A stretch of DNA of 46,078 bases from a virus (lineage: Duplodnaviria > Heunggongvirae > Uroviricota > Caudoviricetes). The DNA is taken from IMG/VR virus record IMGVR_UViG_2675903417_000003; one strand, 5' to 3'. The notes beneath the pieces are model-generated. The model saw nothing but the letters and a program-made list of their open reading frames with translations. It had not been told where the DNA came from and ran no database searches. A program made the position numbers and the translations under genes. The first letter of the stretch is position 1. Each line of letters opens with the position of its first letter. Below, one piece after another: positions 3,752 to 43,226 of the stretch.

Positions 3752-3774
3752 AGTTAGGTAATTCTAATTTTTCT

Positions 3775-4059: not shown

Positions 4060-4564
4060 ACAGGCTCGTGAGGCTCTGGATGCCTGGATATGTCGACCAG
4101 GAATGACACAGGAGCAGGCGACGATATTAATCACTGAAGCATTCTGGGCTTTGAAAGAGCGCCCGAACATCGATGTTCAGCGTGTCACATATGAAGGTGG
4201 CGCGATTGATCAGCGAGCGCTTGGCGTTAATCGAGTGAAGATATTTGAACGCTGGAAGGCTATCGACACCAGGGATAAGCGTGAAAAGTTCACGGCGCTA
4301 GTGCCTGCAATTATGGAGGCTATCCGGATTAATGATTTCAGGTTGTATCGTGAAATTACTGACGGAAAAAGCATCACGTGCATGATCGCCGGGTTAAACA
4401 AAGAATATGGCGATGTGGTGGAGTCCGGACTGCTTTTTGCTGATCCTGCCGTAGTGGATCGTGAAACTGACGAACTTATAGAAAAAGCAATTGCTTTCAA
4501 ACTTGCGTATCGACAGCAATACCAACAAAAAGCTGGATGGAATTATGAGCCTTCTTTTTGCTGA
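4043..4564 (+). CDS. Phage early regulatory protein (CII-like/YdfX-like)
   Basis: 173-aa ORF directly after the cro-like gene and overlapping both neighbours; family assignment is positional. Confidence 0.5.
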   Translation: MKITPEQAREALDAWICRPGMTQEQATILITEAFWALKERPNIDVQRVTYEGGAIDQRALGVNRVKIFERWKAIDTRDKREKFTALVPAIMEAIRINDFRLYREITDGKSITCMIAGLNKEYGDVVESGLLFADPAVVDRETDELIEKAIAFKLAYRQQYQQKAGWNYEPSFC

Positions 4565-5510
4565 ACGCCCACTGGTTATAAACACGCAGCTGGCAATGAA
4601 AATTGGCTTAAACGAAGCCATTGTTTTGCAACAACTGCACTACTGGTTGAGAGATACCAACTCCGGCATGGAATGTGATGGTGTTCGCTGGATTTATAAC
4701 ACAACGGAACAATGGCTGGAACAGTTCCCATTCTGGTCAGAGTCAACGTTAAAGCGCGCGTTTGCAAGTCTGAAAACGCTGGGGCTTTTGCGTTGTGAAA
4801 AGCTCAATAAATCAAAGCGCGATATGACCAATTTCTACACGATCAACTATGGGAGCGAGCTTTTAGATGGTGGCAAATTGAGCGAATCCATCGGTTCAAA
4901 ATGCGCCGCTCCATCAGGTCAAAATGACACGATGGAAGAGGTCAAAATGAAACGCTCCATTGGTTCAAAACGACCCAATGTCATCGGGTCAAAATGGCCT
5001 GATGATCTTACAGAGAATACAACAGAGATTACTACAGAGAATAAAAACACTTTTCGTCCGGAAGCTTCGCAACCGGACCCGCAGACGACTGAACAGGATT
5101 TTTTAACCCGGAACTCCGACGCGGTTGTGTTTAGTGCGAAAAAACGCCAGTGGGGTAGCAGGGAGGATTTGGCGTGTGCGCAGTGGATCTGGGGGCGGAT
5201 CGTGGGTCTCTACGAACAGGCAGCCAGTGATGATGGCGAGATCATGCGACCAAAAGAGCCTAACTGGACTGCCTGGGCCAATGACGTGCGCACAATGCGG
5301 ATGCTGGATGGCAGAAGCCACAGACAAATTTGCGAAATGTTTGGTCGGGTTCAGCGAGATCCATTCTGGGTAAAAAACATCATGAGCCCGTCAAAGCTCC
5401 GCGAAAAATGGGACGAACTGGTCATCCGCCTGGGACGTTCACCTGTACAGCGTTGTGTTAATCATATTTCTGAACCGGATACAGAAATTCCGCCTGGTTT
5501 CAGAGGATAA
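4545..5510 (+). CDS. Putative replication initiation protein (lambda O-like role), with iterons inside the gene
   Basis: 322 aa from ATG 4545 (GGATGG upstream); N-terminal winged-helix-like region; repeated SIGSK peptide motif encoded by the iterons at 4887-4997. Confidence 0.65.
   Translation: MSLLFAERPLVINTQLAMKIGLNEAIVLQQLHYWLRDTNSGMECDGVRWIYNTTEQWLEQFPFWSESTLKRAFASLKTLGLLRCEKLNKSKRDMTNFYTINYGSELLDGGKLSESIGSKCAAPSGQNDTMEEVKMKRSIGSKRPNVIGSKWPDDLTENTTEITTENKNTFRPEASQPDPQTTEQDFLTRNSDAVVFSAKKRQWGSREDLACAQWIWGRIVGLYEQAASDDGEIMRPKEPNWTAWANDVRTMRMLDGRSHRQICEMFGRVQRDPFWVKNIMSPSKLREKWDELVIRLGRSPVQRCVNHISEPDTEIPPGFRG
4887..4997. repeat. Five iterons (GGT(T)CAAAATG core, 22-25 bp spacing) followed by an AT-rich stretch: candidate prophage replication origin
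   Basis: Cores at 4893, 4917, 4940, 4962 and 4987; AT-rich region 5000-5050. Confidence 0.6.
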
Positions 5511-5550: not shown

Positions 5551-5973
5551 GTGGCAAAAGTTTTTACACAAGAAGAGCGGGAAAAAATTAAATGGCAGGT
5601 GGTGGAACTCGTGCGCCAGAGCGGCCGTGAGACGTTACGGCAACTGGAAGCTAAAACAGGTGCGACTAGATATCTGATGAGCGTTCTTGCCAGAGAGCTG
5701 GTAGCCAGTGGCGATGTATACAACTCCGGCTACGGGTTATTCCCCTCTGAACAGGCGCGTAAGGACTGGCAAAACGCCCGCAAAAAACTCTCGAGGGCAA
5801 AGGTGAAGAAACCTGCTGTGGTTGATCCGGACCTTATCTGGTCATCACCTGACGGAGAAATACGTCGCTACGACAGTCGCCTAAACATAATCTGTCGCGA
5901 GTGCCGGAAGAGCGAAGTTATGCAGCGCATACTGGCTTTCTATCAGGGTAATTTTCAGGACGTGGCGCAGTGA
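5551..5973 (+). CDS. Hypothetical protein (possible winged-helix), translationally coupled to the downstream methyltransferase
   Basis: 140-aa ORF with GTG start and AAGGGGGA Shine-Dalgarno; GTGA overlap with the next gene. Confidence 0.55.
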   Translation: MAKVFTQEEREKIKWQVVELVRQSGRETLRQLEAKTGATRYLMSVLARELVASGDVYNSGYGLFPSEQARKDWQNARKKLSRAKVKKPAVVDPDLIWSSPDGEIRRYDSRLNIICRECRKSEVMQRILAFYQGNFQDVAQ

Positions 5974-6326
5974 GTGCACCGGCAACCATTCTTGATATGT
6001 GCTGTGGCAGCCGCATGTTCTGGTTCGATAAGTCTGACGAACGGGCGATATTCAGCGATATCAGAAAAGAAGGATACACATTACGCAATGGGAGACGCTT
6101 GATTATCAGCCCTGACATTATCGCAGATTTTCGTGCATTATCATTTGCAGACGCATCTTTTTCGATGGTTGTATTAGACCCTCCGCATCTTGAGAGTGTT
6201 GGTGATAACGCCTGGATGGGAAAGAAATATGGACGGCTGAATAAAGATGCCTGGCGTGATGATTCGCGACAGAGATTTAAAGAAGCCTTTCGGGTGTTGA
6301 GGCCGCACGGCGTTCTGATTTTTTAA
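5970..6326 (+). CDS. SAM-dependent methyltransferase (N6-adenine/N4-cytosine type), probably truncated by a premature TAA
   Basis: Motif I-like DMCCGSRMF and motif IV VVLDPPHL; only 118 aa; the frame stays open for 29 more codons after the TAA at 6324-6326. Confidence 0.55.
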   Translation: MSAPATILDMCCGSRMFWFDKSDERAIFSDIRKEGYTLRNGRRLIISPDIIADFRALSFADASFSMVVLDPPHLESVGDNAWMGKKYGRLNKDAWRDDSRQRFKEAFRVLRPHGVLIF

Positions 6327-6588
6327 TGGAATGAAACGCAAATACCGGTAAGCCAGATTCTGGCACTGACAGACAGAAAACCTGTTATCTGTCAACGAAC
6401 AGGGAAAAAACGATAAAACCCACTGGATTATTTTTATGAAAGAGGCATCCAGTGAGTAGATTCGTAAGGCTACAGATACGTATATCTGAATAATTAAATT
6501 CAGTTCTGTAAATAAAATTTAATCCTTAACCGGATGGATTTCTGCACCCTCAGAACATCAGGAGGCCGCCCGAAAGGGCGGTAGTGAA

Positions 6589-6699
6589 ATGCGAAAGTTC
6601 AAAATTATTATTGAAACGGGAATAGCTGGTGGAGATTTTGAGGATGTATTCGAAGTGGACGATGACGCAACACCTGAGGAAATTCATGACGGAGCATAA
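6589..6699 (+). CDS. Small ORF (36 aa), first of three tandem small ORFs
   Basis: MRKFKIIIETGIAGGDFEDVFEVDDDATPEEIHDGA; preceded by GGAGG and a GCCGCCC-GAAA-GGGCGG hairpin; frame continues 23 codons beyond the TAA. Confidence 0.3.
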   Translation: MRKFKIIIETGIAGGDFEDVFEVDDDATPEEIHDGA

Positions 6700-6748
6700 G
6701 AAATTTTCTTTAACTACTGCAATTACTCATACCACGAAATAAAAGACG

Positions 6749-6940
6749 ATGAGGAAGAACAAGGTGGCTGATTTTTGTTCAGCTAAATATAACATCAGTT
6801 TTGAAGAGCGGGATGAACTATTAATGGACTATGGTGAGTTACGCGGTGGAAGTGCTGCTGATGTCGAATCCTAGCGTGATGACTATGAAGCGGGAAAAAC
6901 TCCGGTCGAAGCATATTGTGATGAGTGGGGCGATGAATGA
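6749..6940 (+). pseudogene. Small acidic ORF interrupted by an in-frame TAG (6872-6874)
   Basis: MRKNKVADFCSAKYNISFEERDELLMDYGELRGGSAADVES-TAG-RDDYEAGKTPVEAYCDEWGDE; ATGA overlap with the next ORF. Confidence 0.35.
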
Positions 6941-7224
6941 GCGAGATTAATTATCAGGAAGGGCATGAAACGGCGGGGCAAGCAAAACCAGTGGCATGGC
7001 GATATCGCTACGTGAAAAAAGGCGTTACGGACTTTCAGGGGAAGTAGTGGTCTGGTGACTGGAAATATGTACCGAAAAAAGAGGATTGTAACGACAGGCC
7101 GAACTATCAAATTCAGGCCTTATTCACTGCCTCACCAGTCCCAGTTACATCAGAAGAACTGGTTAAAGCTGTGCACTTTTATGAACAACTAAAACGCGAA
7201 AATCCACCAACATCCGGCAACTAG
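6937..7224 (+). pseudogene. Small ORF interrupted by an in-frame TAG (7045-7047)
   Basis: MSEINYQEGHETAGQAKPVAWRYRYVKKGVTDFQGK-TAG-WSGDWKYVPKKEDCNDRPNYQIQALFTASPVPVTSEELVKAVHFYEQLKRENPPTSGN; 95 codons in one frame. Confidence 0.35.
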
Positions 7225-7478
7225 ATTAATGGATTAACTATGTCGGTTAAACGACCAGCCAACTGAAAAAGCGGAAACCTGATTACAGGTTGCCAGATAA
7301 GGCAATGAGCTACCTGGCGCGGAACGGACTGATAAGTATGGGGAATGTTTTACGATGAACCTTTAGACTAAAGAGTTTGTAACGCTATGTAAGTGATTTT
7401 TTCTGGTTTAGATATTTATATGTCCGGCCAAATTGAGGTGTGTTTAAATGTAATTGCACATTGATTGTAGGAGGAATA

Positions 7479-7658
7479 ATGAAAAACGCATTGCAGTTTT
7501 TGTTTGTTGCGTTCTGGTTGTTCGCATCATGTATGCCCATCATCTTCACAGCAAGGTATATGGAAAAAGTTGATGTTTTGATATTAATATTTGGATATAT
7601 AAATGCCCTTTTTTTAGGGGTGTTCATGGCGGTCATGTGCATTGAATACTGGCGGTAA
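7479..7658 (+). CDS. Small membrane protein (59 aa, two predicted TM segments)
   Basis: MKNALQFLFVAFWLFASCMPIIFTARYMEKVDVLILIFGYINALFLGVFMAVMCIEYWR; strong GGAGG Shine-Dalgarno 5 nt upstream. Confidence 0.5.
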   Translation: MKNALQFLFVAFWLFASCMPIIFTARYMEKVDVLILIFGYINALFLGVFMAVMCIEYWR

Positions 7659-7929
7659 ATACAGCGAACTCCATTGGTTTAGTTGGATATTTACTGTGCT
7701 GGACAAAAACGGTTTGCGGGGAAATCTTAGTTAAGTAGAATGACTGCGGGTGCTTGAGGCTATCTGCCTCGGGCATGGACACCAACGGCAGATAGAGAAA
7801 AGCCCCAGTTAACATTACGCGTCCTGCAAGACGCTTAACATTAATCTGAGGCCAATTTCATGCTAGACACATGTAGGTTAGCCTCTTACGTGCCGAAAGG
7901 CACGGAGAAGCAGGCTATTGTTAACACCA

Positions 7930-9560
7930 AGCTGTAATGTCCCCTTTGAACCATTCTAAAATGTCCCCAGACAATTCTCTGGGGGATTTTTCATGATCAA
8001 AGAGACTGTTACGATGAGTCATAAGGAACTCCACCGACTTCAGATTATTCAGGAACAAGCTGCGGCACGCATTGGCATTTCTATTCGGCAGGTTAAACGT
8101 CTGGTGCAACGGTATAGAAATGAAGGGCCTTCTGGTCTGGTTTCCCACCGACGTGGAAAGCGTCCTAATAGTTCCTTTTCTACTGAATTCAGAGCAACAG
8201 TAATTTCACTCCTCAAAGGCCGTTACGCTGATTTTGGACCTACGTTTGCGTGCGAAAAATTGCGCGAGATACACGGTTTATCTTTATCCGTTGAAACTCT
8301 CAGAAAGTGGATGATAGAAGAGGGGTTATGGCGTGAACGCCGTCGTAAAATTGCCCGTATATATCAACGCCGCATGCGACGACCATCTTACGGTGAACTG
8401 ATCCAGATTGATGGCTCACCTCATGACTGGTTTGAAAATCGAGGCCCCAGATGTACACTGATCGTTTTCATTGATGATGCCACCAGTGCGTTGATGGCGT
8501 TGCGTTTTGTGCCTGCTGAAACAACCCGGGCTTACATGGAAACCCTCCGGGGTTACCTTAATGATCATGGCGTACCGCTCGCTCTCTACTCTGATAGACA
8601 CAGTATATTCAGGGTAAATAACCCAGAGCGGGAAGGTGAGCTGACCCAGTTCACTCGTGCGATAAAGACACTGGGCATCGAGCCAATCCATGCCAACAGC
8701 CCGCAGGCAAAAGGGCGGGTAGAGCGCGCCAATCAGACACTACAGGACAGGCTGGTCAAAGAAATGCGGCTTCAGAATATCAGTGATATTGAAACAGCAA
8801 ATGCATGGTTGCCGACCTTTATTGAAGCCTATAACAACCGGTTCGCTACGTCGCCTCGTACTACTGATAATGCTCATCTTGATGTGCACCATTCTGAAGA
8901 GGAACTGGGTTATATCTTCAGCCTACAGGCGAAGCGCGTTCTGTCTAAAAATCTCACTTTCCAGTACAAAAGCAGTGCGTTTCAGGTACGCAGTGAGGGC
9001 CGGGGATATCGACTTAGGCATTCGGTTGTTACTGTATGCGAGAACTTTGACGGTGAAATTAACGTTCTGTATGACGGGAAAGCGCTGGGCTGGGAAAAGT
9101 ATGTTGATGGCCCGGAGCCTATACCACTGGATGATGAAAAGAGTGTCCATGAACGAGTGGATAATGCCCGTATTGATTTACGCTCAAAATACTATGTTAA
9201 ACCTAAAGCTGACCATCCCTGGCTTACGCGCCGAACGCAAAGTCATCAGCAAGTTAAGCCCCCGAAGTTACCTAAAAAGAAGCCTGATCCCGATAAAAAA
9301 GATTGAAACCAAGATCGATTCGGTTGAGTGCATATCCATTCATAGGGTAGATTCTTAAGTCGCGTTTCTGGTGTTCATTTTCGGGTGGTTTGTTACTTGT
9401 TTTACCGGGGATATGCCAGAAACGCGCTGAGTCAGTCTGGGCGGTGCGCGTAATGAGGCGTTATGGTAAATAGCCTATGCTAATGTCCGCTAAGAGCAAG
9501 AAGCGGAAGTTGGCAGTTTTGTGGACTGTCCCCACAAAAGTGACTACAGAAATAGTTGCA
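7930..9560 (+). mobile_element. Insertion element carrying a DDE transposase (boundaries approximate, terminal repeats not resolved)
   Basis: Single 437-aa rve-type transposase inserted between the replication region and flxA. Confidence 0.4.
7993..9306 (+). CDS. DDE transposase with N-terminal HTH and rve integrase catalytic core
   Basis: 437 aa; HTH ISIRQVKRLVQRYRNEG; catalytic motifs IQIDGSPHDW, LYSDRHSIF and GRVERANQTLQDRL. Confidence 0.8.
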   Translation: MIKETVTMSHKELHRLQIIQEQAAARIGISIRQVKRLVQRYRNEGPSGLVSHRRGKRPNSSFSTEFRATVISLLKGRYADFGPTFACEKLREIHGLSLSVETLRKWMIEEGLWRERRRKIARIYQRRMRRPSYGELIQIDGSPHDWFENRGPRCTLIVFIDDATSALMALRFVPAETTRAYMETLRGYLNDHGVPLALYSDRHSIFRVNNPEREGELTQFTRAIKTLGIEPIHANSPQAKGRVERANQTLQDRLVKEMRLQNISDIETANAWLPTFIEAYNNRFATSPRTTDNAHLDVHHSEEELGYIFSLQAKRVLSKNLTFQYKSSAFQVRSEGRGYRLRHSVVTVCENFDGEINVLYDGKALGWEKYVDGPEPIPLDDEKSVHERVDNARIDLRSKYYVKPKADHPWLTRRTQSHQQVKPPKLPKKKPDPDKKD

Positions 9561-9705
9561 ATTCATAATTGATCATGGGTTGTCAGTTAAACTCGTGGCG
9601 ATTTAAATAGACTAATTGGGAGTGCGTCCATTACTTATATCTTGTAATGTTAACTATCAGAAATGATACAAAGATAATATGTCTTTAAAGAAAAGGCTGA
9701 TGGCG

Positions 9706-9728
9706 AAAAGTGGCCCGATGAGGGCCAC
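9706..9728 (-). terminator. Putative intrinsic terminator of flxA
   Basis: GTGGCCC-GATGA-GGGCCAC hairpin followed on the minus strand by TTTTCGCC. Confidence 0.45.
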
Positions 9729-9742
9729 AATACGGCTGTCAC

Positions 9743-10075
9743 TTAGACGTAAATATCAATGGTGCCAGCGGTATTTGTATCGTCTTTTTTCTCTTCTTTT
9801 TTATCAGGCTGAACTGTCGCGTCTTCATTCTTTTTCTCTGCCTGCTGCCTTAACAACTGCTCCAGTTGAGCCCAGAGGCTTTCAATTTGCTTCTGTACCA
9901 ATGCAGCCATTTCTTTTTTCTGCTGTGTCGTCATCCCCTCTTCCGATGAGATTTTCCCAAGCTTTTCAGTCAGCACCTGAATTTGTCTTGTGATTTTGGC
10001 TATTTCTGATGTTCCTTCCGGGGCGGAGTTGTTTGAAATAACGGTTGAGGTATTTCCCTGAATTGTGACAGACAT
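9743..10075 (-). CDS. flxA: FlxA-like protein (FliA-regulated)
   Basis: 110 aa MSVTIQGNTSTVISNNSAPEGTSEIAKITRQIQVLTEKL...; sigma-28 promoter upstream. Confidence 0.8.
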   Translation of the reverse strand: MSVTIQGNTSTVISNNSAPEGTSEIAKITRQIQVLTEKLGKISSEEGMTTQQKKEMAALVQKQIESLWAQLEQLLRQQAEKKNEDATVQPDKKEEKKDDTNTAGTIDIYV

Positions 10076-10097
10076 AGATTTCTCCTTTTAAAAAAGC

Positions 10098-10124
10098 ACT
10101 ATCGGCATGCACAAAAAAATCTTT
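10098..10124 (-). promoter_or_regulatory. Sigma-28 (FliA) promoter of flxA: TAAAGATT-N11-GCCGATAG
   Basis: Minus-strand read TTAAAGATTTTTTTGTGCATGCCGATAGTG, 7/8 and 7/8 matches to the TAAAGTTT-N11-GCCGATAA consensus. Confidence 0.65.
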
Positions 10125-10277
10125 AATCGTATTTCTTGTGTCATTAATTGTTTGATGTTCAGATTGTTTTCCTCGCGGGCTGGCGCGCCTCAGAAAGTAA
10201 AGCTTGTTGACAGGGGTAAACGTTCGGCAATAATTTTCTGCCGCATGCGGGTGTTGCATAAAACGTGTTACGTTCCT

Positions 10278-10583
10278 TTATCGACAGGTCAGGTCACCGC
10301 TCACCCGCCGACGAGAAAGCAACACTGACATGCTAAAGCAAAAAATAGATGAATAAGTTGAGTTGTGCATATGTAGCCTGACCGTCACAAAGTATATGGT
10401 GTCTGTACCAGTAAGATGATGGCCGGACTCTTTAAAAACGAGCTGACCTGCACAATACAGGATGGACTTAGCAATGGCTGCTCCTGGCACAAAGCGGACA
10501 GTGATCACCGTTCTTACGACTACTTTCTGACTTCCTTCGTGACTTGCCCTAAGCATGTTGTAGTGCGATACTTGTAATGACAT
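10278..10583 (-). CDS. Hypothetical protein (YdfV-like position)
   Basis: 101-aa ORF between flxA and relB; composition only moderately protein-like. Confidence 0.35.
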   Translation of the reverse strand: MSLQVSHYNMLRASHEGSQKVVVRTVITVRFVPGAAIAKSILYCAGQLVFKESGHHLTGTDTIYFVTVRLHMHNSTYSSIFCFSMSVLLSRRRVSGDLTCR

Positions 10584-10596
10584 TTGTAATTACAAG
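10571..10596 (+). promoter_or_regulatory. relBE operator (relO-like inverted repeat CTTGTAAT-N-ATTACAAG)
   Basis: cttgtaatgacatttgtaattacaag lies immediately upstream of the relB start. Confidence 0.6.
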
Positions 10597-10607
10597 AGGT
10601 GTAAGAC

Positions 10608-10847
10608 ATGGGTAGCATTAACCTGCGTATTGACGATGAACTTAAAGCGCGTTCTTACGCCGCGCTTGAAAAAATGGGTGTAACTCCTTCTGAAGCGCTT
10701 CGTCTCATGCTCGAGTATATCGCTGACAATGAACGCTTGCCGTTCAAACAGACACTCCTGAGTGATGAAGATGCTGAACTTGTGGAGATAGTGAAAGAAC
10801 GGCTTCGTAATCCTAAGCCAGTACGTGTGACGCTGGATGAACTCTGA
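10608..10847 (+). CDS. relB: RelB antitoxin
   Basis: 79 aa MGSINLRIDDELKARSYAALEKMGVTPSEALRLMLEYIADNERLPFKQTLLSDEDAELVEIVKERLRNPKPVRVTLDEL. Confidence 0.9.
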   Translation: MGSINLRIDDELKARSYAALEKMGVTPSEALRLMLEYIADNERLPFKQTLLSDEDAELVEIVKERLRNPKPVRVTLDEL

Positions 10848-11134
10848 TGGCGTATTTTCTGGATTTTGACGAGCGGGCACTAAAGGAATGGCGAAAGCTG
10901 GGCTCGACGGTACGTGAACAGTTGAAAAAGAAGCTGGTTGAAGTACTTGAGTCACCCCGGATTGAAGCAAACAAGCTCCGTGGTATGCCTGATTGTTACA
11001 AGATTAAGCTCCGGTCTTCAGGCTATCGCCTTGTATACCAGGTTATAGACGAGAAAGTTGTCGTTTTCGTGATTTCTGTTGGGAAAAGAGAACGCTCGGA
11101 AGTATATAGCGAGGCGGTCAAACGCATTCTCTGA
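10847..11134 (+). CDS. relE: RelE mRNA interferase toxin
   Basis: 95 aa MAYFLDFDERALKEWRKLGSTVREQLKKKLVEVLESPRIEANKLRG...; start overlaps the relB stop. Confidence 0.9.
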   Translation: MAYFLDFDERALKEWRKLGSTVREQLKKKLVEVLESPRIEANKLRGMPDCYKIKLRSSGYRLVYQVIDEKVVVFVISVGKRERSEVYSEAVKRIL

Positions 11135-11205
11135 ACCAAAGCATGACATCTCTGTTTCGCACCGAAGGTGACACTTCTGCTTTGCGTTGACAGGAGAAGC
11201 AGGCT

Positions 11206-11361
11206 ATGAAGCAGCAAAAGGCGATGTTAATCGCCCTGATCGTCATCTGTTTAACCGTCATAGTGACGGCACTGGTAACGAGGAAAGACCTCTGCGAGGT
11301 ACGAATCCGAACCGGCCAGACGGAGGTCGCTGTCTTCACAGCTTACGAACCTGAGGAGTAA
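11206..11361 (+). CDS. hokD: Hok-family type I toxin (HokD/RelF-like)
   Basis: 51 aa MKQQKAMLIALIVICLTVIVTALVTRKDLCEVRIRTGQTEVAVFTAYEPEE; below the ORF-track size cutoff. Confidence 0.85.
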   Translation: MKQQKAMLIALIVICLTVIVTALVTRKDLCEVRIRTGQTEVAVFTAYEPEE

Positions 11362-14625: not shown

Positions 14626-14925
14626 AAAAATTCCTTAATACTGATAACTTGGCGCACTATACACACGTTCCTGAAGAAAGCTATAGTTTTTTGATGGGGT
14701 TGAAGATGGCTGGATGTCTAAAATAAACATTGCTTCATATGTTCAACTATGCGTTAATGATTGCGTCGGTTTGAAGAACAGACGATATACGAAGTAGTTT
14801 ACTAAAGCAGTTCTCATTTCAGGTGTTATTCACTTATTCCTTCTTTGAGTCTCTCCAATTAAGTACGAAGTCGTTTCTGTTATGCAAACCATTTATGCCG
14901 AAAGGCTCAAGTTAAGGAATGTAGA

Positions 14926-15141
14926 ATGTCAAATAAAATGACTGGTTTAGTAAAATGGTTTAACGCTGATAAAGGTTTCGGCTTTATTTCTCCTGTTGAT
15001 GGTAGTAAAGATGTGTTTGTGCATTTTTCTGCGATTCAGAATGATAATTATCGAACCTTATTTGAAGGTCAAAAGGTTACCTTCTCTATAGAGAGTGGTG
15101 CTAAAGGTCCTGCAGCAGCAAATGTCATCATTACTGATTAA
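14926..15141 (+). CDS. cspB: Cold-shock protein CspB-like
   Basis: 71 aa [71 protein letters not shown]; long 5' UTR and AAGGAA Shine-Dalgarno. Confidence 0.9.
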
Positions 15142-15423
15142 AATTCATCGCTCGTCTGTATACGATAACGAAGAAGGCTGATGCCTGAGTAGAGATACGG
15201 ACAGAGTAGTGAATATTGGATCTCTTTAATAAAAAGTAAGGAGGTCCAATACATGAAACAATGGCTAGCATATTTGGCAAAATCTTAATCAGGAAAAGTA
15301 TGCTAACCATTGTGGTGAAGTGCAGGTTTGCTGCATGAATAGTTTTACAGCAGAAGCTAACTGCTGGCATGGCAAAACAAAGTGCGTAAGTGGATGACTC
15401 CCACAAAAAGCACCACAATCTCA

Positions 15424-17459: not shown

Positions 17460-17821
17460 GGTAATATTAAATCGGAACATTTACATCGCGGAATGTAAAA
17501 TTTAAATAAAAAGGACTCTTCCATGAGCCAAAATTCCTGAAATCTTAAGGGTAAGATAAAAGGTCTTAATCAGAATGACACGTTTTATTAATAAATAAAG
17601 CTATTCTTTCATTGCTGTGTTTTTCTTTACAAAAGTAATCCTTGCTATGGGTGGTTAATCATGCGTTAATGGTGTTCTGGTTTGTTACAAATTTATCTGA
17701 AGCAGTCATTGTTATAATTTTATTATTTGTACCTCTTGAGATTTCCTTGTTGGTTTTTCTCTCTGATATTTTTTTTCGGACCATTCTGCCCAAGGGCTAA
17801 TTTCTTCAAAAGGTAATAATT

Positions 17822-18034
17822 ATGTCTAACAAAATGACTGGTTTAGTGAAATGGTTTAACCCTGAAAAAGGTTTTGGTTTCATCACGCCGAAAGATGGCA
17901 GCAAAGATGTGTTTGTCCATTTCTCAGCAATTCAGAGCAACGATTTCAAAACATTAACTGAGAATCAGGAAGTTGAATTTGGTATTGAGAACGGACCTAA
18001 AGGTCCTGCCGCTGTTCATGTAGTGGCGCTTTGA
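17822..18034 (+). CDS. cspI: Cold-shock protein CspI-like
   Basis: 70 aa [70 protein letters not shown]; long AT-rich 5' UTR. Confidence 0.9.
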
Positions 18035-18233
18035 GGTAGACAATATTACAAACCATATTCACTTTAGATGCCCGTGTTGTCATGGTTCCCAGTATAGAAC
18101 ATCATCTTTTGATGTTTCTGACATGAATCCTTTCGGGGCAAAATGTATCTTTTGTAAATCAATGATGATTACATTTGATAATATTTCACAATACTTAAAT
18201 GCCAGCCGTCTGTCGTTGGATTTAAAAAAGTGA
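18024..18233 (+). other. Open frame encoding a zinc-ribbon-like peptide with no canonical start codon
   Basis: Frame HFRCPCCHGSQYRTSSFDVSDMNPFGAKCIFCKSMMITFDNISQYLNASRLSLDLKK; ends just before the terminator at 18241. Confidence 0.3.
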
Positions 18234-42651: not shown

Positions 42652-43226
42652 TGGCATTCAGAATGAGTGAACAACCACGGACCATAAAAATTTATAATCT
42701 GCTGGCCGGAACTAATGAATTTATTGGTGAAGGTGATGCATATATTCCGCCTCATACAGGTCTGCCAGCAAACAGTACCGATATTGCACCGCCAGATATT
42801 CCGGCTGGCTTCGTGGCTGTTTTCAACAGTGATGAGTCATCGTGGCATCTCGTTGAAGATCATCGGGGTAAAACGGTTTATGACGTGGCTTCCGGCGACG
42901 CGTTATTTATTTCTGAACTCGGTCCGTTACCGGAAAATGTTACCTGGTTATCGCCGGAAGGGGAGTTTCAGAAGTGGAACGGCACAGCCTGGGTGAAGGA
43001 TACGGAAGCAGAAAAACTGTTCCGGATCCGGGAGGCGGAAGAAACAAAAAACAACCTGATGCAGGTAGCCAGTGAGCATATTGCGCCGCTTCAGGATGCT
43101 GCAGATCTGGAAATTGCAACGGAGGAAGAAATCTCGTTGCTGGAAGCATGGAAAAAGTATCGGGTATTGCTGAACCGTGTTGATACGTCAACTGCACAGG
43201 ATATTGAATGGCCAGCACTGCCGTAG
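42651..43226 (+). CDS. tfa: Tail fiber assembly protein Tfa
   Basis: 191 aa [48 protein letters not shown]... Confidence 0.9.

Follow-up and report, generated by a model that had tools for sequence, protein, structure and literature searches.

In phage lambda, the early rightward (pR) operon has the gene order O-P-ren, and the nin region lies in the interval from the replication genes to Q. The lambda ren gene is defined by the escape from Rex (RexAB) exclusion that it confers. Small DNA methyltransferases of the phrog_954 family (PDLC03288/PDLC03730; "class I SAM-dependent methyltransferase" in RefSeq, ~160 aa), characterized by the motifs LDMCCGS and DPPH, are found intact in the ead/Ea22 part of pL operons. 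The ead/Ea22 region of lambdoid and Stx phages also contains a run of three small genes with overlapping stop and start codons, a layout seen in vB_EcoS-640R1, vB_EcoM-606R7, and Rac-like prophages.

The window analyzed here (the whole 46,078-nucleotide stretch of viral DNA, IMGVR_UViG_2675903417_000003) is a Qin-type lambdoid prophage, which is common in Escherichia coli. Its 5551-7660 block recurs with 100% identity in numerous genomes, including those of E. coli W and ATCC 8739, and 473 complete E. coli records carry the block sequence at ≥99% identity. As annotated in ATCC 8739, where the locus is identical, the block lies between a replication gene and the Q antiterminator gene, which bears out the first-pass annotation, made from sequence alone, which had located it in the position of the lambda nin region. 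Despite this shared position, searches of the six ORFs against Pfam and PHROG identified no NinB, NinC, NinG/RusA, NinH, or other Nin family within 5551-7660. The ORFs, overlaps, in-frame stops, and ribosome-binding site described previously are all present. The accompanying statement that none of the ORFs could be assigned to a family was wrong, as five of the six match Pfam, PHROG, or PADLOC families (E-values 1e-13 to 1e-80).

These results very probably describe ordinary prophage decay, with one intact Ren-like gene followed by four broken accessory genes of known types and one doubtful tiny ORF (Table 1). The gene families are already catalogued in phages, the reading of the block as an undescribed or new module fails, and nothing in it acts as a coordinated system. 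The other suggestion made for the block, that it is a decaying module, is upheld by premature stops in four adjacent genes. It had also been anticipated that well-known nin genes, intact in relatives, would indicate ordinary decay; the genes are indeed known and intact in relatives, although their families are not those of the nin region. The block itself matters little; its seemingly unexplained raw sequence resolves into a Ren-like gene and pseudogenes of catalogued phage families. Further searches of the block added few features. NCBIfam profiles matched none of the six ORFs, PADLOC matched the methyltransferase and no defense system in the remaining ORFs, and Rfam contained no RNA family within 5551-7660. 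Promoter-like sites were not above chance (4 versus 4.7 expected from shuffled sequence), and the terminator scan yielded no convincing candidate.

Table 1. Predicted features of the 5551-7660 block and the adjoining region (window coordinates).
Feature	Coordinates	Strand	Basis
DUF977/LygF/Ren-like gene, intact, 140 aa, GTG start	5551..5973	+	Pfam, PHROG, hhalign, BLASTP
Small class I SAM-dependent (REBASE-type orphan/Type II) DNA methyltransferase pseudogene, 5' 118 codons, GTG start	5970..6326	+	Alignments, PHROG, PADLOC
Methyltransferase gene 3' remnant, 1-nt insertion in A-run 6402-6412	6327..6460	+	Frame translations; DNA alignment to intact L009 gene
Small ORF a: DUF7167/phrog_1997 pseudogene, 60 codons, AAA>TAA at 6697-6699	6589..6771	+	Pfam, PHROG, relatives
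Small ORF b: phrog_519-type gene, 58 codons, TGG>TAG at 6872-6874	6764..6940	+	PHROG, relatives
Small ORF c: phrog_660-type gene, TAG at 7045-7047, 3' end lost	6937..7224	+	PHROG, alignment
Orphan 59-aa ORF, coding status unproven	7480..7659	+	Strong SD, two hydrophobic segments
5' half of hok/sok locus (sok; mok start 7860), severed from hokD	7748..7919	+	Rfam sok, 104 bits
IS1202-family (ISEsa1-type) transposon, 3274 bp, with ydfW, flxA, ydfV, relBE	7919..11192	+	Ends, target duplication, empty sites

The first gene of the block, ORF1, matched Pfam DUF977 (PF06163) across residues 1-136 (E-value 5.1e-29; 101.5 bits against a cut-off of 22.1) and phrog_142, the "Ren-like exclusion protein" family that also contains lambda Ren (1.6e-47). 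An alignment of 18 DUF977 sequences compared with lambda Ren via hhalign gave a probability of 93.3% (E-value 2.8e-7, 73 columns), with homology at the profile level across the helix-turn-helix and the C-terminal ECRxSxxMxRVLAxY helix, and BLASTP of ORF1 against lambda Ren detected the C-terminal helix directly (E-value 2e-6). ORF1 has a winged helix in its N-terminal part and a conserved CxxCR...MQRVLAFY helix in its C-terminal part. Its AlphaFold2 model (mean pLDDT 76) is confident over residues 7-83, with values of ~88-94 across residues 11-80, and the Foldseek matches are MarR/ArsR/GntR winged helices, in agreement with the earlier description of the ORF as winged-helix-like. DUF977/LygF may be viewed as a longer homologue of Ren. 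Like lambda ren, the gene belongs to the rightward early operon and is located directly behind replication genes. It differs in length (140 versus 96 aa, with an extra helix and basic linker at residues ~67-110) and in its immediate neighbor, as it starts directly behind an O-like gene (4491-5510) with no P or DnaC-type loader in between. We considered whether DUF977 is itself a helicase loader replacing lambda P. This idea was rejected because Rac-like relatives have a DnaC-like loader in addition to DUF977, and it is also disfavored by the O-like protein itself having DnaD/DnaT-like matches (PHROG and NCBIfam profiles). The gene is under purifying selection (dN/dS of 0.12-0.31 versus four relatives). 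By analogy with lambda Ren, its product would most likely shield the growth of the phage itself against Rex-type exclusion. In the literature, LygF occurred as a mere gene label in Salmonella genome notes and DUF977 was mentioned in an unrelated context only, while nothing was found for PhiR42.

The GTG start of ORF2 overlaps the stop codon of ORF1 (GTGA, 5970-5973). The motifs attributed to it previously were confirmed, with motif I (LDMCCGS, residues 8-14) and motif IV (DPPH, residues 70-73) being invariant or nearly so in family alignments. The family comprises 6,739 homologues, mostly of 157-167 aa, and the premature TAA of ORF2 (6324-6326, AAA>TAA) stands where the alignment has an invariant lysine (Lys119). 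Approximately 20 invariant residues lie beyond position 118, and the C-terminal third conserved in the family (K119 W120 E122 T123 ... H151 W152 F155) is absent from ORF2. When the methyltransferase sequence was artificially repaired, and only then, it matched the family profiles from end to end (phrog_954, 6.7e-80; PADLOC MTase_II, PDLC03288, 1.8e-66), alongside a PADLOC oMTase match of 3.4e-45. The part that remains shares 83-87% identity with intact copies from E. coli. ORF2, as read from these alignments, is a predicted pseudogene that represents the first two-thirds of a ~160-aa methyltransferase. Compared with intact members of the phrog_954 family, the gene ends early at codon 119, has a frameshift, and lies behind ren, whereas the intact copies found adjoin Ead/Ea22 genes in pL operons. 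The reported absence of an obvious target-recognition domain stands, and has two causes: the family is small, and this copy lacks the last ~44 codons. Structural comparisons were less informative. The AlphaFold2 model of an intact relative (P0004) was poor (pLDDT 60.7), and its Foldseek matches to GNAT acetyltransferases were not significant (E-value >0.01). PDB sequence searches with the methyltransferase gave nothing significant, and the best hit of the family in a PDB profile search, the methyltransferase PH0226, reached an E-value of only 0.1. Methyltransf_11/25 was weakly matched by 37 of 38 family members. Contrary to the pseudogene call, RefSeq annotates the 118-aa fragment in ATCC 8739 as an intact protein (WP_001310834.1, "class I SAM-dependent methyltransferase"); we regard this entry as the product of a truncated pseudogene, which should not be counted as a methyltransferase.

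The first-pass annotation had limited the interruptions to three tandem small ORFs further downstream. These do each contain an in-frame stop, although the methyltransferase makes four adjacent broken genes, and small ORF c additionally lacks its 3' end. Once its stop was replaced by Lys, the read-through sequence of small ORF a matched DUF7167 (PF23768; 1e-13, 51.6 bits against a cut-off of 24.4) and phrog_1997 (1.6e-29). The ORF is intact in the relatives L003, L005, and L007, and relatives have AAA at the position of the stop. Small ORF b matched phrog_519 (5.3e-14) and is intact in L003 and L007; the ATG start of its relatives is a GTG here (6764), with an upstream ATG at 6749. It overlaps small ORF c in an ATGA. 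Small ORF c matched phrog_660 (8.8e-29), the intact form of which has 119 aa in L005, and its stop is common to L003, L007, and L008, with an A-run of variable length in the alignment. PGAP flagged two of the small ORFs as pseudogenes ("internal stop" for a and "frameshifted; internal stop" for c). The small ORFs are not nin genes; their families occur intact in related phages, in the ead/Ea22 (exo-xis) regions of Stx phages and behind DUF977 in related prophages. The genes and their order are the same as in the ead/Ea22 region, the difference being that all three are interrupted in the Qin-type block.

We propose that the block is a mosaic accessory region behind the replication gene of a Qin-type lambdoid prophage. 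Its mosaic joints lie at 5976/5977 and 6485/6486, and recombination would have put two accessory cassettes behind the ren-like gene, one encoding a small orphan DNA methyltransferase and the other three tiny acidic proteins, both of a kind located in the ead/Ea22 (exo-xis) region of other phages. All four cassette genes were presumably killed by point nonsense mutations and homopolymer frameshifts and kept as pseudogenes. The ren homologue, a small winged-helix protein from the early rightward operon, would then be the working gene of the block. Sequencing errors were rejected as a source of the stops, which are the same in hundreds of complete genomes. It is highly implausible that the interrupted genes are still expressed, via stop-codon read-through or as functional truncated products such as a 118-aa SAM-binding fragment. 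In favor of expression, hundreds of genomes share the allele with the stops under strict conservation, and RefSeq retains the 118-aa protein as an ordinary CDS; however, the conservation arises because the whole prophage is near-identical across strains. Read-through by a suppressor tRNA was rejected, as ARAGORN found no tRNA in the window and hence no suppressor there. Both TAA and TAG occur among the stops, frameshifts are present as well in the methyltransferase and phrog_660 genes, and the lost methyltransferase tail contains the ~20 invariant residues.

Four consecutive inactivated genes might point to selection for their loss. Approximately 5% of random single-base changes in the four broken genes create a stop, and there are ~110 differences between these genes and their nearest intact relatives, so that four nonsense changes fit neutral drift and are not above chance. 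Pairwise dN/dS values between the broken genes and intact relatives are still 0.12-0.43, which implies that the inactivations are fairly recent. Adaptive silencing would mean that the methyltransferase and small-protein cassettes were harmful in the pR operon of the resident prophage, and that each gene was knocked out by selection and not drift. Nonsense mutations in each of four adjacent genes in spite of the low pairwise dN/dS are consistent with this scenario, as are the intact flanking DUF977 and O genes and the finding that the same phrog_519 Trp codon is TAG in an independent lineage (L005). Nonetheless, we consider it improbable, given that the number of stops fits the neutral-drift prediction and that relatives have different subsets of broken genes, as expected if these are dispensable. 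It is also quite unlikely that the methyltransferase and its three companions moved from pL (ead/Ea22) to behind ren and were selectively silenced as harmful to the lysogen, with the 59-aa ORF as a newly born membrane protein.

The 59-aa ORF displays the features ascribed to it as a well-initiated two-transmembrane protein, with an AGGAGG ribosome-binding site 5 nt upstream and hydrophobic segments at residues ~5-24 and 33-55. It had no match in Pfam, PHROG, NCBIfam, or PADLOC, and probably arose by chance or very recently in the spacer that precedes the hok/sok locus. A real, lineage-restricted small membrane protein (toxin, holin-like, or exclusion factor), which would be the sole live accessory gene downstream of DUF977, is possible but doubtful. 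The near-perfect, optimally spaced Shine-Dalgarno sequence, the two clear hydrophobic segments, and the intact copies in the largest clusters argue for such a protein. However, only 35 clusters were found, all from E. coli/Shigella with no homologues outside, and the ORF was frameshifted, recombined, or replaced in its second half in several of the 17 cluster sequences inspected. Moreover, RefSeq leaves the ORF unannotated in ATCC 8739, phage records annotate the opposite strand instead, and the single substitution relative to L003/L007 is too few for a selection test.

The hok/sok locus that adjoins the block is split by the 3.27-kb IS1202-family (ISEsa1-type) transposon. Members of the IS1202 family have imperfect terminal inverted repeats of ~24-26 bp and generate a target-site duplication (PMC10132070). 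Homology to relatives ends at 7918 and restarts at 11192, and the element is flanked by a 15-bp duplication (GGAGAAGCAGGCTAT, 7904-7918 and 11193-11207), with 19 of 26 bases matching between its ends as imperfect terminal inverted repeats. This ISEsa1-type transposon apparently carries the classical E. coli relBE locus as cargo and seems to insert specifically at the starts of hok-family toxin genes. If true, this would account for how the relB-relE-hokD (relBEF) operon arose and for the earlier lack of a target duplication for ISEsa1, and this by-product of the analysis outweighs the block itself in importance. The right end at relBE was also sought at the ISEsa1 copy on a Klebsiella pneumoniae plasmid, where the region has been rearranged by Tn4401. 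Perfect 15-bp target duplications were present at three different sites, and empty sites were found in L008/L003 and in ColIb-P9. Insertions of the transposon recur at hok-family start codons.

The block at 5551-7660, which the first-pass annotation had put forward as an undescribed or decaying accessory module, comprises an intact Ren-like gene, four pseudogenes behind it, each from a catalogued family of phage accessory genes, and one doubtful ORF. Decay was borne out by the four pseudogenes; novelty was not, the families being catalogued and the content of the block already known. All of the ORF features read from the sequence were confirmed by an ORF listing and direct reading, and the stops are real, since the stop-bearing allele is found in 473 complete E. 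coli records at ≥99% identity. ORF1, ORF2 and the three small ORFs, none of which had been considered assignable to a family, all match known families; only the 59-aa ORF matches none. That these known genes are intact in relatives is a result the first-pass annotation itself had set against its reading.

The 2.4 kb around the block are 100% identical to chromosomes of E. coli ATCC 8739, W, IAI39, 042, CE10 and many others, and 99.9% identical to the deposited "Escherichia phage PhiR42_1". According to RefSeq, the identical ATCC 8739 locus is a Qin-type lambdoid prophage, with exonuclease, ydfD, dicB, ydfC, ydfB, ydfA, dicA, dicC, YdaT/CII-like and O-like replication genes before the block, and ISNCY transposase, ydfW, flxA, ydfV, relBE, hokD, rem, ydfU and Q-type antiterminator genes after it. 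Because of this annotation and the Rfam matches, the earlier placement of the block at the nin-gene position is correct.

Features of the block and its surroundings (window coordinates)
Feature	Position	Basis or content
Group II intron domain fragment, window left edge	37-123	Rfam
DicF	2249-2300	Rfam
O-like replication protein	4491-5510	
ORF1, 140 aa, GTG start	5551-5973	ORF listing, direct reading
ORF2, 118 aa	5970-6326	GTGA overlap with ORF1
First small ORF, in-frame TAA	6697-6699	
Second small ORF, in-frame TAG	6872-6874	
Third small ORF, in-frame TAG	7045-7047	
59-codon ORF	7480-7659	AGGAGG upstream; two hydrophobic segments
hok/sok locus	7748-11207	Split by transposon
sok	7748-7919	Rfam
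Transposon, 3274 bp	7919-11192	ISEsa1-type IS1202-family transposase, ydfW, flxA, ydfV, relBE
Transposase ORF	7993-9306	437 aa
cspA-type thermoregulator leader	14765-15157	Rfam
cspA-type thermoregulator leader	17676-18061	Rfam
IS009	42994-43192	Rfam

The Pfam family DUF977 covers ORF1 in full (5.1e-29), and the protein also falls in PHROG 142, "Ren-like exclusion protein" (1.6e-47). BLASTP aligned its C-terminal helix with that of lambda Ren (NIICRECRKSEVMQRILAFY versus NLVFKECRQSAAMKRVLAVY, E = 2e-6), and an 18-protein DUF977 profile aligned with lambda Ren over the helix-turn-helix and C-terminal helix (93% probability, E = 2.8e-7). The suspected winged helix was supported by an AF2 model, confident at residues 7-83 (three helices, a wing and a fourth helix), and by Foldseek matches to MarR, ArsR, GntR and Z-alpha winged helices. 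Judged from these similarities, ORF1 is a Ren homologue and, like lambda ren, it comes after replication genes. In lambda, Ren gives escape from Rex-type exclusion, and by analogy the same function would be expected here. The gene is evidently maintained, given dN/dS values of 0.12-0.31 against four relatives. DUF977 is a narrow family (at 50% identity it comprises 99 clusters, of which many are fragments), and its name LygF is, according to the literature, only an inherited label. The Ren-like gene directly follows that for the O-like protein, and no loader of the P, DnaC or DnaB type lies between them. The O-like protein matches DnaD-like helicase-loader PHROGs and shows, over its final 20 residues, a weak match to the C-terminus of DnaT; it may be sufficient on its own to recruit the host primosome.

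ORF2 belongs to phrog_954, "DNA methyltransferase" (6.7e-80). PADLOC assigned the family to MTase_II (1.8e-66) and orphan MTase (3.4e-45), while Pfam returned only weak matches to Methyltransf_11/25. Beyond its TAA, the frame reads on as WNETQIPVSQILALTDRKPVICQRTGKK and then, in the +1 frame, as NDKTHWIIFMKEASSE; in alignment, a stop replaces K119 and the A-run at 6402-6412 has one additional base. The repaired query retrieved 6739 proteins, mostly of 157-167 aa, including a 248-aa variant with a C-terminal extension. In an alignment of 38 family members, about 20 positions past residue 118 are invariant; a conserved third of the domain is therefore missing from the 118-aa product. ORF2 thus appears, from sequence, to be a broken small DNA methyltransferase. 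A target-recognition domain is indeed absent, as first noted, because the family is small and this copy is truncated. Intact copies (e.g., P0004) occur within the pL operons of P22-like and lambda-like prophages, where recombination genes lie on one side and Ead/Ea22-DUF551 genes on the other; each shows translational coupling with the gene before it, whatever that gene may be. PGAP labels ORF2 "frameshifted; internal stop" in one near-identical genome. In ATCC 8739, RefSeq annotates it as an intact 118-aa "class I SAM-dependent methyltransferase" (WP_001310834.1), which is nonetheless a fragment truncated by a nonsense change; 385 members belong to the cluster that contains this sequence. In phage HannyBb (3337-4023), the methyltransferase has decayed further, to a 68-aa ORF followed by a 228-aa protein, which we take to resemble QueH/DUF208 epoxyqueuosine reductase in sequence.

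With stops read through, the three small ORFs match DUF7167/phrog_1997, phrog_519 and phrog_660. Their order, with overlapping stop and start codons, is kept in vB_EcoS-640R1, vB_EcoM-606R7 and a Rac-like prophage, and the comparison with relatives that had been proposed earlier found intact copies in all three: the first and second genes in vB_EcoS-640R1 and the Rac-like prophage, and the first and third in vB_EcoM-606R7. Homology to these relatives runs from 6486 to near 7228, and homology spanning DUF977 ends at 5976; the methyltransferase and three-gene segments are therefore separate mosaic cassettes.

Pairwise dN/dS between the broken genes and intact relatives is 0.12-0.43, and most divergence therefore arose under constraint, with comparatively recent inactivations. 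In a multiple alignment, the AAA>TAA change in the first small ORF is specific to the window lineage and one further relative (L008), and the TAG in the third is common to the window, L008, vB_EcoS-640R1 and the Rac-like prophage, with an A-run of variable length. The second carries TGG>TAG, and the identical codon is TAG in vB_EcoM-606R7 (3771-3773) with different flanks; either the gene was inactivated in parallel in the two lineages or a small patch was exchanged by recombination. Such clustered stops could also be read as adaptive silencing, a minor alternative. About 5% of random substitutions in the broken genes would create stops, and the nearest intact relatives of these genes are about 110 differences away; neutral drift is enough to account for the four nonsense changes. 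As the stop count fits neutral drift, other sets of genes are broken in relatives, and a search across the window found no tRNA, we read the decay as ordinary loss of dispensable genes.

The 59-aa ORF had no match in Pfam, PHROG, NCBIfam or PADLOC. Among 5.8 billion proteins it fell into 35 clusters, exclusively from E. coli/Shigella, and several of the 17 cluster sequences inspected had a second half altered by frameshift or recombination. Available relatives show one base difference, too little for a selection test. The ORF is unannotated in ATCC 8739 (RefSeq), whose opposite strand is the one annotated in phage records, once as "hornerin"; it may, tentatively, encode a small membrane protein of recent origin.

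Outside the block, homology between the window and its relatives breaks at 7918, within mok and with the hok start codon one base incomplete, and resumes at 11192. The transposon between these points was inserted at the hokD start codon, and this insertion made a relB-relE-hokD operon. At its ends lie TGTTAACACCAAGCTGTAATGTCCCC and TGTCAACGCAAAGCAGAAGTGTCACC, imperfect inverted repeats that match at 19/26 positions. A perfect 15-bp duplication, GGAGAAGCAGGCTAT, flanks the unit on both sides, and L008 and vB_EcoS-640R1 hold a single copy of it at the empty site. The same unit lies at the pndA start of an IncI plasmid with a distinct 15-bp duplication, TGGAGGGGCTATGAT; once reconstructed, the empty site there is 100% matched, in one piece, by ColIb-P9 and hundreds of IncI plasmids. 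A 6093-bp version in IncHI2-type plasmids has identical ends, a third duplication, GGAGAAGAAGGCCAT, and extra cargo (an ISEsa2 insertion, a cytochrome b gene and a CDF transporter). relBE adjoins the right end in every version seen. The exact right end is present in 19 species-representative genomes, and a Hok-family frame begins 3-14 nt past it in 15 of the 22 loci examined; HokD, PndA and a HokE-like protein are among the six or more distinct Hok sequences represented.

We found no description of a relBE transposon inserted at hok in the searchable literature, which is not proof of novelty; such insertion at hok-family starts may be so far undescribed. ISfinder lists ISEsa1 as 1609 bp with "no TSD detected" (PMC10132070), which would be explained if the mobile unit were the larger IRL...relBE...IRR element. 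The chromosomal copy in the window may be immobile, because its transposase gene is shorter than plasmid copies (446 aa) by an in-frame deletion of 27 bp and is incomplete in ATCC 8739 according to RefSeq. K-12 keeps only the right part, from ydfW onward, which is probably why the origin of relB-relE-hokD is not evident there.
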